Part shown: positions 49,423 to 54,080 of the stretch, in pieces
How positions within the stretch are numbered: position 1 is the stretch's first letter
Layout: every line of letters begins with the position of its first letter
NCBI GenBank assembly: GCA_964408935.1
Contig: CAYPBF010000003.1
Coordinates: forward strand, 1 to 55,006
Direction: 5' to 3'
Origin: an uncultured Dehalococcoidales bacterium
GTDB lineage: Bacteria; Chloroflexota; Dehalococcoidia; Dehalococcoidales; BS750m-G39
Length of the DNA: 55,006 nt
The notes under the pieces: model-generated
Told to the model about the DNA's origin: nothing
What the model saw: only the letters and a program-made list of their open reading frames with translations
Database searches by the model: none
Made by a program: the position numbers and the translations under genes

Positions 49423-50604
49423 ATGGCGGATAGGAAGGTTTGTATCATCGGCGGTGGCATGGATAGATGGGGGGTGAGAGAGGCCAGCTTGGTCGACTTG
49501 GCCCAGGAGGCGGCGCAGGCCTGTTTTGACGATGTGCCGGCGTTGAAGAAAGAGGATATAGACGGCCTTATCTTTGCTTCTTCCTACTGCGGGCGGAGCT
49601 CTTTTCAGGTTAACGCGGCTCCGGTAATCGCCGAGCGCATCGGTCTTCAGCCGACCAGTATCTGTACCAGGGTGGACACCCTCTGTGCCGGCGGCAGTTC
49701 GGGTATCATCATGGCCACGGGGCTGATAAGGTCCGGGATGGCCGATGTGGTCATGGTTGCTGGTGGCGAGAAGCTCTATACGCCACAGCGCTGGGAGACC
49801 TACTACAGCGAGATGGCTTCCATCGACCATGATTGGGATGGAGCCCAGGGGATGGGTTTACCGCCCCCCTTCTTCAGCATGACCGCCCAGGAGCACATGA
49901 AGCGCTACGGGACGACCAAGGAACAGCTTTCGGCGGTCTCAGTCAAGAACCGCCGCAACGGCTCTAACAACCCTAATGCACAGTTCCAGAAGGAGATTTC
50001 TCTGGAAGAGGTGATGGCCGCTAGGCCGATTGTACCGCCGCTGAGCCTTTTTGATTGCACGCCTATTACCGACGGCTGCGCCGCCGTGATGTTGACTCAT
50101 GAAGATAAGGCCAAGGAGCTTTCCGACCGTCCCCTGGTTTACGTCAGGGGAACGGCTCAGGCGAGTCTTCACAGTATGTCTATGAACTGGCCCGGTGAGA
50201 GTTTGGCCGATTGGGTCCACCTGAGGACGGCAGCTAAGAGAGCTTACGAGCAGGCCAGGGTTAAACCCGAAGACATCGACGTCGCCCAGACTCACGATTG
50301 CTTTACCATCTCGGAGATTATCGAGATGGAGGACCTGGGGTTCTGCAAGAAGGGGGAGGGGGGGCCCTTTGTCGAGTCGGGACAGAACGATTTTGGCGGC
50401 AAGATTCCGACCAATACCGACGGCGGGCTGCTTTCCTGTGGCCACCCCTTCGGCGCCACCGGTATTCGCCAGGCACGCGAGATTCTCTTCCAGCTGCAGG
50501 GTAGGGCCATCAGGCAGGTAGATGGCGTCAAGATGGGGTTGACCCATAACCTGAGCGGCCTCAACGTCGAGCATACCATACTTATCTACGGCCGAGAGCC
50601 CTAA
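49423..50604 (+). CDS. Thiolase-family protein 2 (SCP2/archaeal HDCF type)
   Basis: VDTLCAGG (Cys), QTHDCF, GGLLSCGHPFGATG. Confidence 0.92.
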   Translation: MADRKVCIIGGGMDRWGVREASLVDLAQEAAQACFDDVPALKKEDIDGLIFASSYCGRSSFQVNAAPVIAERIGLQPTSICTRVDTLCAGGSSGIIMATGLIRSGMADVVMVAGGEKLYTPQRWETYYSEMASIDHDWDGAQGMGLPPPFFSMTAQEHMKRYGTTKEQLSAVSVKNRRNGSNNPNAQFQKEISLEEVMAARPIVPPLSLFDCTPITDGCAAVMLTHEDKAKELSDRPLVYVRGTAQASLHSMSMNWPGESLADWVHLRTAAKRAYEQARVKPEDIDVAQTHDCFTISEIIEMEDLGFCKKGEGGPFVESGQNDFGGKIPTNTDGGLLSCGHPFGATGIRQAREILFQLQGRAIRQVDGVKMGLTHNLSGLNVEHTILIYGREP

Positions 50605-50635
50605 AAGATAAGATTAACGCTATAAGGGGGAAATT

Positions 50636-51121
50636 ATGCCAGTACCTGGAGTACCGATTTTAGAAGGTTTATATCCATCGACTCTGGACCTTTATCCTTT
50701 TGAGGCCAAGGAATTTAACCGGGTTCACCAGTTCTACGAGAACTTGAGGGCAAACCGCTTTACCACCACCAAGTGTAAGAAATGCGGCACTACGCCTTTC
50801 CCGCCGCGGGTCGTCTGCCCCAAGTGTAATTCGGACGACCTGGAGTGGGTGGACTTGCCCACCAAGGGTAAGGTGCTGCGTTTCACCGAGGAGGTGGCGG
50901 GAGTGCCCCTGGGCTTCGATGCCCCCCTGATTCACGCCCTTATTGAGCTGGAAGACGGGCACAAGCTTATCTGCCGTATCGCTAATTGTAAGGAAGGGGA
51001 ACTTAAAGAGGGTGCGGCCGTACGGCTGTTTGCCTATGAGGTACCACCCATGATTGTGGAGAATAGGGGTGTCATGAAGGAAGTACCCCGAATGTTCTTT
51101 GCTTTTGAACCGGTGAAGTAG
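50636..51121 (+). CDS. Zn-ribbon/OB-fold DUF35 protein 2
   Basis: CKKCG..PFPPRVVCPKC, ALIELEDG. Confidence 0.9.
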   Translation: MPVPGVPILEGLYPSTLDLYPFEAKEFNRVHQFYENLRANRFTTTKCKKCGTTPFPPRVVCPKCNSDDLEWVDLPTKGKVLRFTEEVAGVPLGFDAPLIHALIELEDGHKLICRIANCKEGELKEGAAVRLFAYEVPPMIVENRGVMKEVPRMFFAFEPVK

Positions 51122-51127: not shown

Positions 51128-51149
51128 ACCAAAACAATCGAATAAAACA

Positions 51150-51262
51150 TTTCCGAAGACAGCGGGTGCCCCTTAAGGGGGCTCAAATTCAATGCCTGCC
51201 GAGGATAAAAAGGGTTGAGTCTTTTAAGTCCTTGCGCGGCAGGTGCAAGGACTCATTTTTTA
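51150..51262 (+). promoter_or_regulatory. L10 leader (r-protein autoregulatory RNA) with downstream terminator-like hairpin
   Basis: CCGAAGACAGCGGG...CCTGCCGAGG core; hairpin AGTCCTTGC/GCAAGGACT followed by a T-tract; upstream of rplJ. Confidence 0.88.
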
Positions 51263-51279
51263 TAGGGGGGTGATGAATA

Positions 51280-51807
51280 TTGGCCACTAGGGAAGAGAAG
51301 GCGCAGATTATCGACAGCCTGCAGGAGATTTTCTCCAAGTGCAGCGTCGGTGTGCTGACTGACTATCGGGGTCTGACGGCGGCCGAGATGACTGAGCTGC
51401 GCCGCAAATTGAGAGAAGCCAACGTTGAGTATCGGGTAGTGAAGAACACGCTGGCGCGCTTTGCCGCCGAGAGGGCGGGCAAGGACGAGCTGTTGGGCTT
51501 CTTCGAGGGACCGGTGGCGATTGCCTTCGGCTACGGTGATATTACCGAGCCGCCCAAGGCCTTAGCCGCCTATATCGAGGACGCTAAGGTGGAGATGACG
51601 TTCAAGGGCGGCTTCTTACCCGATAGGATGCTCAGCCTGGAGGAAGTCGAGAGCCTGTCGAAGCTACCGTCAAGGGAGATTCTGCTGGCCAGGGTCGTGG
51701 GCGGAATACAAAGCCCATTGGCGGCTTTGGTCAGCCGTCTTAACGCCCCGATGGCGGGGCTGGTGGGAGTATTGCAAGCTAGGATTAAACAATTGGAGGG
51801 AAAATAA
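51280..51807 (+). CDS. rplJ: 50S ribosomal protein L10
   Basis: [29 protein letters not shown]. Confidence 0.97.
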
Positions 51808-51809
51808 AA

Positions 51810-52490
51810 ATGGCAGAAGAAGCCAAGGAAAAGAAAGAGGAGAAAGCCGAGGCTGAGGTGAAGGAACCCGAAGCGGAAGAGCCGAAGGCTCAACCCGAAG
51901 CGGAAGAGCCAAAGGCTCAACCCGAAGCGGAAGAGCCAAAGGCTCAACCCGAAGCCAAGGCTGAAGAGAAGCCTGAGGCCAAAGCCGAGGAGAAGCCCGA
52001 AGCTGAGGCGAAACCGGAGGCCAAGGCGGAAGCTAAACCGGAACCGAAGCCAGAGCCTAAACCGGAGCCTAAGGCCGAGGAGAAGAAGGCGCCTAAGAAG
52101 CTATCCAAGGGCGTCGAGGACATTATGAACACCATAAAGAAGATGACCGTCCTCGAGCTTTCCGAGCTGGTAGGCGCTCTTGAAGACGAGTTCGGCGTCA
52201 GTGCTTCGGTGGCGGTGGCGGCTCCGGCCGCGGGTGGGGCGGCAGCAGGCGCCGCGGCTCCGGCGTCCACCGAGGAGCAGACGGAGTTCAGTGTCGTCCT
52301 CAAAGACGTGGGGGCCAACAAGATTAACGTTATCCGTGCCGTCAGGGAGATGACGACGCTGGGCTTGAAGGAAGCCAAGGACTTCGTCGAGAGTGCTCCA
52401 CAGACGGTAAAAGAGGGAGTTACCAAGGACGAAGCCGCTAATATGAAACAAAAGCTTGAGGCGGCGGGCGCTACTGTTGAAGTAAAATAA
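51810..52490 (+). CDS. rplL: 50S ribosomal protein L7/L12 with ~97-aa E/P/K/A-rich N-terminal extension
   Basis: Core [58 protein letters not shown]. Confidence 0.95.
51865..51955 (+). repeat. 27-bp coding tandem repeat, about 3.4 copies (QPEAEEPKA unit)
   Basis: AACCCGAAGCGGAAGAGCC(G/A)AAGGCTC starting at 51865, 51892, 51919, partial copy at 51946. Confidence 0.95.
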
Positions 52491-52505: not shown

Positions 52506-52763
52506 GTGACTTCTGGCGATTATTGGCTACCTATCGCTATCGGTGGCTTTTTCGCCATCGTGGGCATCATCCTGGTTCTTTTGGGCCGGGGGGAGGAGAG
52601 ACATTACTACGACTCCCTGGCTCAGCGCACCGACGCCAGGGAGTTCCTGGAGCGATGGCCGGAGCGCCCACGTTTGGGGGCGCTTAAAATCGGCGGTTGG
52701 ATAACTATTATCGTCGGCGGGATGCTGATAATTATGGGTGGTGCCTTCTGGCTATGGGGCTAG
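52506..52763 (+). CDS. Small two-TM hypothetical membrane protein
   Basis: 85 aa, hydrophobic N and C helices around a charged loop. Confidence 0.7.
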   Translation: MTSGDYWLPIAIGGFFAIVGIILVLLGRGEERHYYDSLAQRTDAREFLERWPERPRLGALKIGGWITIIVGGMLIIMGGAFWLWG

Positions 52764-52844
52764 AGGGACGCGCTACCTATATCGTTTCTCGTCCTTAACT
52801 ATCGAATCTTTTATCCCGACGTGCCTGTGTTCACGGTTTTTTAG

Positions 52845-54080
52845 ATGAACATGATTAGCTCTCAGAGCGGTGGAAAAGGTTATCGCCTTTACGTGCTTAC
52901 TCTTGCGGCACTGTCCTGCACCTTTACTATTGCTATGCAACAGATTTGCATGTCCGTCCTCTTCAAGGAGGTAGCCGAGGACCTGGGCATGAACTTGGTT
53001 CAGATGGGCATAGTCTGGGGTATGCCCAACTTTGCTGGTTTGTTTATTGTCTTCGTCGCTGGCTTGCTTGCCGACCGTTTTGGAGCCCCGCGCGTCATGG
53101 GCATTGCCTGTATCCTGGCCGGCATCTTCGGTGCCCTCAGGGGTACTACCGGTGACTTTTTCAGTCTGGCGCTAGTTACCTTCTTTATGGGACTTTCCAT
53201 CTGGGTTCTACCCAGCAGCGTCTTTAAAACCACCGCCACCTGGTTTTCGGGGCGGAAACTGGTCATCGCCAACGGCGTGGTTTCGGCGGGCATGGGGCTG
53301 GGCTTTACCGTAGGCGCCCTGATTAGTGCCACCGTAATGTCACCATTGCTTGGCGGCTGGGAGAACGTGTTATTCTTGTATGGCGGCATATCGGTCTTCA
53401 TCGGATTGCTCTGGCTGCTCACCGTGAAGGAGCATAGCCAGGTGCACCTGGGAGCGGCACCGACCAAGGTGCCGTTGCGCCAGTCAATCTCACGCGTCTT
53501 TCCTATCAAAACCATCTGGCTTCTCGGCTTGACCCTTTTGGGCTATGGCGCTTGTATTCAGGGGGTGATTGGTTACTTGCCCACCTACCTGCGCAATATC
53601 GGCTGGGCGGCCGCCGGCGCCGACGGAACTGTGGCTGCCTTTAGTGCTCTGAGCACGCTGGGAGCTATTCCGCTGACCTTACTTTCGGCCAAGATCGGCT
53701 TGAGGAAGGCTGTTACCTTCCCGGTGCTGATAGTGGTCATTGTCGGTGTCGCCCTGCTGCCCCTGGTGGGTAGTGCCGCGGTCTGGGTGATAATGATAAT
53801 AATCGGCGTTACCCGTGACGGCTTTATGGCCGTCGTCCTAACCATAAGCACCGAAACCGAGGGGGTGGGGGTAGTCTATGCCGGCACGGCTATGGGGCTG
53901 ACGCAGACAATTATGAGCGTGGGTCCTCTTAGTTCTCCCGCCCTGGGTAACAGCCTGGCCGACCCCGCTAACCCCGCCGCCCCCTATCCCTTCTTCCTCT
54001 GGGCGGCCTTCGGGCTGATAGCATTAATCGCCTTTTGCTTCGTCAAGGAATCGGGCTGGCGGAATAAACCCCAGTTATGA
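52845..54080 (+). CDS. MFS transporter
   Basis: About 12 TM segments; motif A GLLADRFGAPRV. Confidence 0.92.
   Translation: MNMISSQSGGKGYRLYVLTLAALSCTFTIAMQQICMSVLFKEVAEDLGMNLVQMGIVWGMPNFAGLFIVFVAGLLADRFGAPRVMGIACILAGIFGALRGTTGDFFSLALVTFFMGLSIWVLPSSVFKTTATWFSGRKLVIANGVVSAGMGLGFTVGALISATVMSPLLGGWENVLFLYGGISVFIGLLWLLTVKEHSQVHLGAAPTKVPLRQSISRVFPIKTIWLLGLTLLGYGACIQGVIGYLPTYLRNIGWAAAGADGTVAAFSALSTLGAIPLTLLSAKIGLRKAVTFPVLIVVIVGVALLPLVGSAAVWVIMIIIGVTRDGFMAVVLTISTETEGVGVVYAGTAMGLTQTIMSVGPLSSPALGNSLADPANPAAPYPFFLWAAFGLIALIAFCFVKESGWRNKPQL

Follow-up and report, generated by a model that had tools for sequence, protein, structure and literature searches.

The bacterial ribosomal protein bL12 is the only multi-copy ribosomal protein and recruits every translational GTPase, and its N-terminal domain docks on L10. 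The N-terminal helix's role in the dimer and L10 interface was established from the Thermotoga maritima complex 1zav, and the length of helix alpha8 of L10 sets the number of L12 dimers. Here we describe rplL, the gene for bL12, in a window of 55,006 nucleotides (the whole stretch of DNA analysed; positions 1 to 55,006 of contig CAYPBF010000003.1, assembly GCA_964408935.1) from an uncultured Dehalococcoidales bacterium. The open reading frame (ORF) list and two Pfam domains (PF16320, PF00542) place rplL at 51810..52490, encoding a protein of 226 aa and 24.0 kDa; this and all other features of the window given below lie on the + strand. About 97 charged, repetitive residues precede the bL12 core. 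We put the probability of the whole favoured account, a real 226-codon rplL read from ATG 51810 whose disordered tail acts as a brush, at roughly 0.7.

Compared with canonical bL12 from T. maritima (128 aa; 1dd3, 1zav) and Escherichia coli (121 aa; 3j7z), the protein shares the Pfam domains and the Ala/Pro hinge. The gene likewise lies directly 3′ of rplJ with the L10 leader upstream, and is single-copy, with one match in the whole genome (97% complete, 1.39 Mb). The protein differs at its N-terminus: some 97 residues that are predicted to be disordered stand before helix alpha1, and the start Met is replaced by Leu. Canonical bL12 has about 120-130 aa and its start Met at helix alpha1, whereas this protein has 226 aa and alpha1 begins at residue 100. 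In a comparison with the PDB, no solved bacterial bL12 chain covers the extension.

A complete bL12 behind a repetitive extension

The C-terminal 129 residues of the rplL product are a complete bL12 with a mass of 13.3 kDa. The N-terminal dimerisation and L10-binding domain (PF16320, 61 bits against a cut-off of 25, E = 8.5e-17) occupies aa 103-149 (52116..52256), and the C-terminal factor-binding domain (PF00542, 103.9 bits against a cut-off of 25.9, E = 5.7e-30) occupies aa 160-226 (52287..52487) and spans the full profile, 1-67. An Ala/Pro/Gly hinge (aa 133-155) lies ahead of the C-terminal domain. With other bL12 from Dehalococcoidia the core shares 57-72% identity. Because PDB bL12 chains (119-128 aa) align only from query residues 101-105 on, and Pfam likewise only past about residue 100, 97-99 residues are extra.

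The N-terminal extension comprises aa 1-97 (51810..52100; 10.7 kDa). With 33% E, 23% K, 22% A and 18% P, 56% charged residues and a net charge of −10, it is a strong, mildly acidic polyampholyte with PEPK stretches, and would be expected to form an expanded, hydrated coil. An AlphaFold2 model built with a 68-sequence alignment assigns residues 1-93 a predicted local distance difference test score (pLDDT) of 40-47 and no secondary structure; the extension is thus predicted to be disordered. The N-terminal domain has pLDDT 84-93, with helices at 100-110 and 114-128, and the C-terminal domain about 90, and the hinge (133-155) falls below 50.

The extension contains two generations of repeats. A 27-bp tandem repeat encoding the nine residues PEAEEPKAQ is present in 3.4 copies that are 98% identical (51865..51955; Tandem Repeats Finder, TRF, and repeat search family D2), the copies differing by one synonymous CCG/CCA change. 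Older degenerate repeats with periods of 12, 24 and 30 bp follow (51957..52075; TRF and repeat family D1, spacings 24, 18, 24, 12, 12) and encode AKAEEKPE twice and PEPK three times. All repeat spacings in the extension found by TRF and the repeat search are multiples of 3. An assembly artefact is unlikely as the source of the 27-bp array, because the array (91 bp) is shorter than a typical short read. We rejected an origin from mobile or palindromic (RPE/REP-like) repeats: the repeat search found no inverted repeat pairs in 51780-52130, and blastn against the whole genome returned no dispersed copies, only self-hits and chance 14-18-mers. Neither the 27-bp unit nor the junction of tail and core gave an exact match when metagenome contigs were scanned, and an identical full-length protein is absent from a collection of 15 billion proteins.

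The original prediction, made from the sequence alone, had proposed a repetitive extension of about 97 residues on L12, built from these repeats, and had suggested disorder prediction as a check. The ORF at 51810-52490, whose core begins at about aa 100 by Pfam and PDB alignment, bears out the first claim, every listed repeat was recovered by TRF and the repeat search, and the low pLDDT over residues 1-93 agrees with the expected disorder.

Start site and probable translation of the extension

The ATG at 51810 stands 2 nt past the rplJ stop codon (TAA, 51805-51807). Direct reading of the sequence places a Shine-Dalgarno (SD) motif, GGAGGG, at 51795..51800, inside the 3′ end of rplJ and 9 nt before the ATG, as the original prediction had noted; this context is conserved in relatives. 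We compared the start site among 29 readable relatives at species level, drawn from this genus, its family and its order, which are uncultured Dehalococcoidales and Dehalococcoidia known from metagenome-assembled genomes. In 29/29, the first in-frame ATG lies 1-2 nt past the rplJ stop behind a conserved GGAGG(G/A), and the frame runs from there uninterrupted into the bL12 core. The start context CAATTGGAGGGAGAATAAG-ATG is kept in 25/25 of the family and order loci displayed. Gene-caller ORFs of the 120 best database homologues are full-length (158-252 aa), and all homologues displayed in the alignment begin with a motif like M-x-x-E-E-A-K-G-K-K.

The canonical start, by comparison, is lost in the genus. 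Leu98 (CTA, 52101..52103) occupies the position of the canonical bL12 start Met, and the 11 genus members compared all have Leu there, encoded by CTA, CTG, CTT, TTA or TTG. The potential start codon TTG occurs in only 2/11, and no SD motif precedes the position. Other Dehalococcoidia families retain M-[ST]-K at the canonical start, and Leu98 is probably the relic of an ancestral Met-Ser-Lys start.

Substitutions in the extension follow the pattern of a reading frame. In a protein-guided codon alignment of the 11 genus members, differences in the extension at codon positions 1, 2 and 3 number 672, 385 and 1652 over 4115 codon pairs; of the changes, 1159 are synonymous and 926 non-synonymous. 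The corresponding counts for the core are 443, 229 and 2037 over 6923 codon pairs, with 1789 synonymous and 573 non-synonymous changes. The bias towards position 3 indicates that the tail changes in the manner of coding sequence and is less constrained than the core. The repeat periods, all multiples of 3, point the same way.

Because the start context is kept, the canonical start is lost, the codon positions differ in this way and the frame is open in every relative, we consider it very probable that the extension is translated and retained on the protein, in line with the initial assignment of the extension to the rplL ORF. We dropped the open frame as sole proof of translation, since the antisense frame is open too.

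Length variation, distribution and proposed origin

Tail length is highly variable: it ranges from 61 to 162 aa within the genus, from 24 to 133 aa within the family and from 35 to 79 aa in the order's other families, and no two species among the 29 relatives share one length. The shortest extensions, 24-25 aa in L021, L022 and L025, are Lys-rich and non-repetitive (MPQNEAKGKKATKKPSVKAEAGKKP), and longer ones insert 9-residue units (e.g. KEPEAKAEV) between the same ends. In one relative (L013), GTG recurs every nine codons of the extension. Where this species has its 27-bp array, relatives have at most single QPEA units.

Two further claims of the original prediction bear on this pattern. That the locus would be variable in length is borne out by the range of 24-162 aa across the 29 relatives. 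Recent expansion, which it had read from the near-identical repeats, holds for the 27-bp copies and not for the extension as such: by comparison with relatives, the array is a recent, species-specific expansion, and the extension itself is old, since it is present across the family, the order and several other Dehalococcoidia families.

We also surveyed rplL lengths in Chloroflexota, a check that the original prediction had proposed. Most of 401 genomes of the class Dehalococcoidia have normal open frames of 126-140 aa. Several other families of the class carry real extensions of 33-130 aa behind an rplJ-adjacent ATG. Three of 20 long frames within the class (L044, L048, L062) are read-through and not extensions, and two could not be parsed. 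Outside the class, we fetched the 12 longest open frames from about 134 Chloroflexota genomes; 11 were readable, and in all 11 the frame is GC-rich read-through ahead of a canonical SD and ATG. The survey therefore confirmed extensions in several families of Dehalococcoidia and found none real among the 11 readable frames outside; in this sample, the trait appears confined to Dehalococcoidia.

As a separate observation, two GC-rich Chloroflexota outside Dehalococcoidia, L072 (G546:C93, −) and L074 (G484:C12, +), have no stop between the rplJ and rplL frames. Their open frames span 335 and 323 aa with an SD still ahead of the internal bL12 ATG, and could be in-frame uL10-bL12 fusions.

In Dehalococcoidia without an extension, rplJ and rplL are separated by a spacer of 31-95 nt, compared with the 2 nt between the rplJ stop and the gene start here, and these spacers are comparable in size to the shortest extensions (24-25 aa). 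We infer that an upstream start captured the former spacer and that the canonical Met turned into Leu. Such a capture would have given a short Lys-rich extension of about 25 aa, in which a 9-residue unit resembling KEPEAKAEV would then have grown and shrunk by replication slippage; the three near-identical 27-bp copies found here would be the latest such event. Selection would hold the frame and the composition, and not the length or the exact sequence.

Predicted stalk stoichiometry

The best alignment of the local uL10 is with T. maritima L10 (1zav, an L10-(L12 N-terminal domain)6 complex), and it has no gaps over residues ~107-169 including helix alpha8, whereas E. coli-type L10 chains align to it only up to residue 151. 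A long alpha8 of the Thermotoga type predicts three L12 dimers, and the stalk therefore probably carries six copies of bL12. Six tails would add about 580 residues radiating from the stalk base. We propose that they act as a hydrated entropic and electrostatic brush or spacer that has no specific binding module.

Similar tails elsewhere in the genome

The original prediction had treated the tail as a possible novelty of the stalk. That part calls for revision: the E/K/P/A tail is not special to bL12, and at least five other ribosomal proteins of the genome carry similar ones. In a genome-wide scan for E/K/P/A-rich segments, the bL12 tail is the top match. Tails were also found on the Pfam-confirmed proteins uS3 (C16:11865-12995; 376 aa, net charge of the tail +6), uS17 (C16:10687-11253; 188 aa, −28), bL9 (C19:7739-8374; 211 aa, +19), bL19 (C6:34009-34584; 191 aa, −24) and bS16 (C9:1-396, at a contig end). 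By eye only, we assign a further tail of about 235 aa to the C-terminus of an RpoB-like protein (C11:6555-10853) and another to a NusA-like protein (C19:2457-3905). On these other translation and transcription proteins the tails are mostly C-terminal, whereas that of bL12 is N-terminal. The bL12 tail would belong to a lineage-wide set with uS3, bS16, bL9, uS17, bL19 and, by eye, RpoB and NusA. In this genome, six bL12 tails and those of the five Pfam-confirmed proteins would sum to more than 1,000 extra residues per ribosome.

All members of the genus have the uS17 tail, as do those family members with long bL12 tails; the rest of the order lacks it. Across 28 genomes, the length of the uS17 open frame (95-234 aa) correlates with that of the bL12 extension (Spearman 0.79), as it does inside the genus alone (Spearman 0.80, n = 10), both values being raw and ignoring phylogeny. 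This co-variation suggests a genome-wide driver of tail length.

Two other repeat-bearing or E/K/P/A-rich proteins were seen in the genome. One, identified by eye only, resembles a class II ribonucleotide reductase with an E/K/P/A-rich N-terminal insert. The other (C10:31459-32085, 208 aa) has an N-terminal KEAKE/KREAKEAKEK repeat of about 110 residues and a globular C-terminal part without a Pfam match.

Points against the favoured account and alternative explanations

Several observations weigh against a translated, retained and featureless tail. The antisense frame of the purine-rich repeat is likewise open, which makes openness of the frame weak evidence by itself, and the protein guidance of the codon alignment somewhat inflates the synonymous share. 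Codon usage is less biased in the tail (GAA:GAG 15:17, against 7:26 in the core), and GC content at third codon positions is 0.59 in the tail and 0.69-0.74 in the core. The one-contig genomes in family f10, presumably those of the cultured dehalogenating relatives, encode a normal bL12 of 126-134 aa, and published proteomes therefore cannot help. In known structures the N-terminus of bL12 sits at the L10 interface, where a long tail might interfere sterically. The statistics on tail-length co-variation take no account of phylogeny, and a conserved N-terminal motif, MTxEEAKGKK, together with a basic junction, KKxPKKLSKG, hints at something beyond a featureless brush.

The N-terminal motif leads to the likeliest of the alternatives, in which the tail would be a specific module, this motif recruiting a partner to the stalk on a tether of variable length, by analogy with the conserved C-terminal peptide of P-stalk proteins in archaea and eukaryotes. 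M-[TSP]-x-E-E-A-K-G-K-K is retained throughout the family, with linkers that span 24-162 aa, the cost is high for a 1.39-Mb genome, and tail lengths co-vary between proteins. The motif is, however, of low complexity and charged, lacks a hydrophobic anchor such as GFGLFD in P proteins, and fades beyond the family. Its conservation may stem from a constraint on the region of translation initiation, because within the genus its third codon positions are conserved as well, and the bL12 C-terminal domain already recruits factors. We consider this reading unlikely; given translation, a non-specific brush is somewhat preferred over a specific binding function.

A second alternative accepts the long protein and adds a short one: bL12 would be made as two isoforms, the long form from ATG 51810 and the short from an internal start, the mix tuning the stalk. 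In other Dehalococcoidia families (L047, L050, L051, L053, L055, L057), the canonical M-[ST]-K persists inside the long frame behind an SD-like motif that ranges from strong (GAGGAGG, L047) to weak (GGGAG, L057), and these lineages may make two isoforms. In the genus, by contrast, Leu (CTA here) stands at the canonical start position and no SD precedes it. The sole internal candidate here is the in-frame ATG of Met106 (52125..52127), with a GAGGA that ends 5 nt upstream, a good SD spacing. The original prediction reported no alternative start just before the core and overlooked this ATG, which lies not ahead of the core but inside helix alpha1 (AlphaFold2 residues 100-110). A start at Met106 would therefore cut away roughly half of this helix, on which the dimer and L10 interface depends. 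Neither SD nor Met is conserved: GAGGA consists only of codons for V-E-D and is gone in L003-L005, which read V-A-D, and Met106 is replaced by Ile or another residue in L012, L013, L016, L018, L020 and L028 and is absent too in L060, so that at least seven relatives lack the Met and still bear the extension. In L060, from the complete genome G027, no ATG, GTG or TTG occurs between Met1 and the MTVLDL motif. For the present species we regard the two-isoform reading as improbable.

A third alternative holds that the tail is translated and then removed as a propeptide, leaving a mature ribosome with normal bL12. A precedent exists in Firmicutes, where the N-terminal extension of bL27 is cut by the Prp protease. 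Within the genus, no part of the extension is better conserved than the basic junction KKxPKKLSKG before alpha1, which could be a processing site, but its conservation may just reflect a relic of the former start region. No Prp-family cysteine protease (PF04327) was found in the 97%-complete genome, in a search whose controls score in 3/14 genomes. It also seems unlikely that about 100 costly residues would be made six times per ribosome and then discarded, and the C-terminal tails on other ribosomal proteins favour a retained feature. Taken together, these points make removal quite improbable.

Translation mainly from ATG 52125, with the upstream 315 nt merely an open spacer, draws on the well-placed GAGGA and on the ease with which purine-rich repeats remain open, but is judged very improbable as the main start on the comparative data, given the truncated alpha1, the relatives without the SD or the Met, the upstream ATG and SD kept in every relative, and the position-3 substitution bias.

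The rplJL operon and its neighbours

At 51135..51267 lies an L10 leader (RF00557; Rfam 60.2 bits against a gathering score of 44, E = 1.7e-8), the element through which the rplJL operon is autoregulated; it includes a terminator-like hairpin (51227-51253) followed by a T run. Downstream of it, rplJ (51280..51807) starts at a TTG and encodes a uL10 of 175 aa (PF00466, E = 5e-28). The operon is isolated, with neither rplKA nor rpoBC adjoining; the RpoB-like gene sits on contig C11. Two genes lie upstream (window 49423-51121), one thiolase-like, the other encoding a ChsH2-type zinc-ribbon/OB-fold protein. Downstream (window 52506-54080) are an 85-aa putative membrane protein without a Pfam match and a 411-aa ORF that has, by eye only, the look of a multi-pass membrane transporter.

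Implications

If each of the six predicted copies bears a tail of some 100 residues, the stalk would tolerate much more N-terminal cargo than has been assumed. The lineage of uncultured Dehalococcoidales would carry more than 1,000 extra disordered residues per ribosome despite streamlined genomes of 1-1.7 Mb, which raises the question of whether the cost is selected, for surface charge, hydration or spacing, or is tolerated drift from repeat slippage. On the practical side, automated annotation ought not to trim rplL starts in this clade, bL12 is a poor length-invariant marker there, and the rplL repeat could serve strain typing.

A more speculative reading, which we think rather unlikely, is that the bL12 tail is the largest component in a polyampholyte coat, coordinated and under selection, that covers the translation and transcription machinery of these small-genome Dehalococcoidales. 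Such a coat, if present, could govern the spacing between ribosomes, hydration or the behaviour of condensates where cells are very small and grow slowly. At the stalk, it could add a second layer of charge in which translation factors are concentrated or gated, as a bacterial equivalent of the factor pool at the P-stalk.

Comparison with known systems

Mitochondrial bL12m (198 aa, 6vlz) also has extra N-terminal sequence, and aligns from its own residue 55 on to query residues 93-224. That sequence, however, consists of a presequence for targeting and a short linker, and is not a tandem-repeat polyampholyte. The archaeal and eukaryotic P-stalk (aP1, P1/P2) is alike in being a multi-copy stalk with long flexible acidic tails, as a functional analogy only: fold and ancestry are unrelated, and P tails are C-terminal and end in a conserved hydrophobic factor-binding peptide. 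The bL12 described here has its tail at the N-terminus and keeps the factor-binding C-terminal domain, and a hydrophobic peptide of that kind is not evident.

A full-text search of the literature found no account of an N-terminally extended bacterial bL12. The closest described features are the A/E/K low-complexity tails surveyed on bacterial ribosomal proteins, the vast majority of them C-terminal (Ntountoumi et al. 2019, PMC6821194). Frequent carriers in that survey are S2, S16, L25, S3, S6, L3, L10, L17, L19, L21 and L31, and do not include bacterial L12 (PMC6821194); the tails of uS3, bS16 and bL19 in this genome are on proteins of that list. Like the surveyed tails, the bL12 extension is dominated by A, E and K, is terminal, belongs to a highly expressed ribosomal protein and is conserved among relatives (29/29). 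Unlike them, it is N-terminal, rich in Pro (18%) and probably present in six copies per ribosome. The bL12 tail is thus not an isolated invention, and adds an N-terminal, multi-copy case to the known A/E/K tails.

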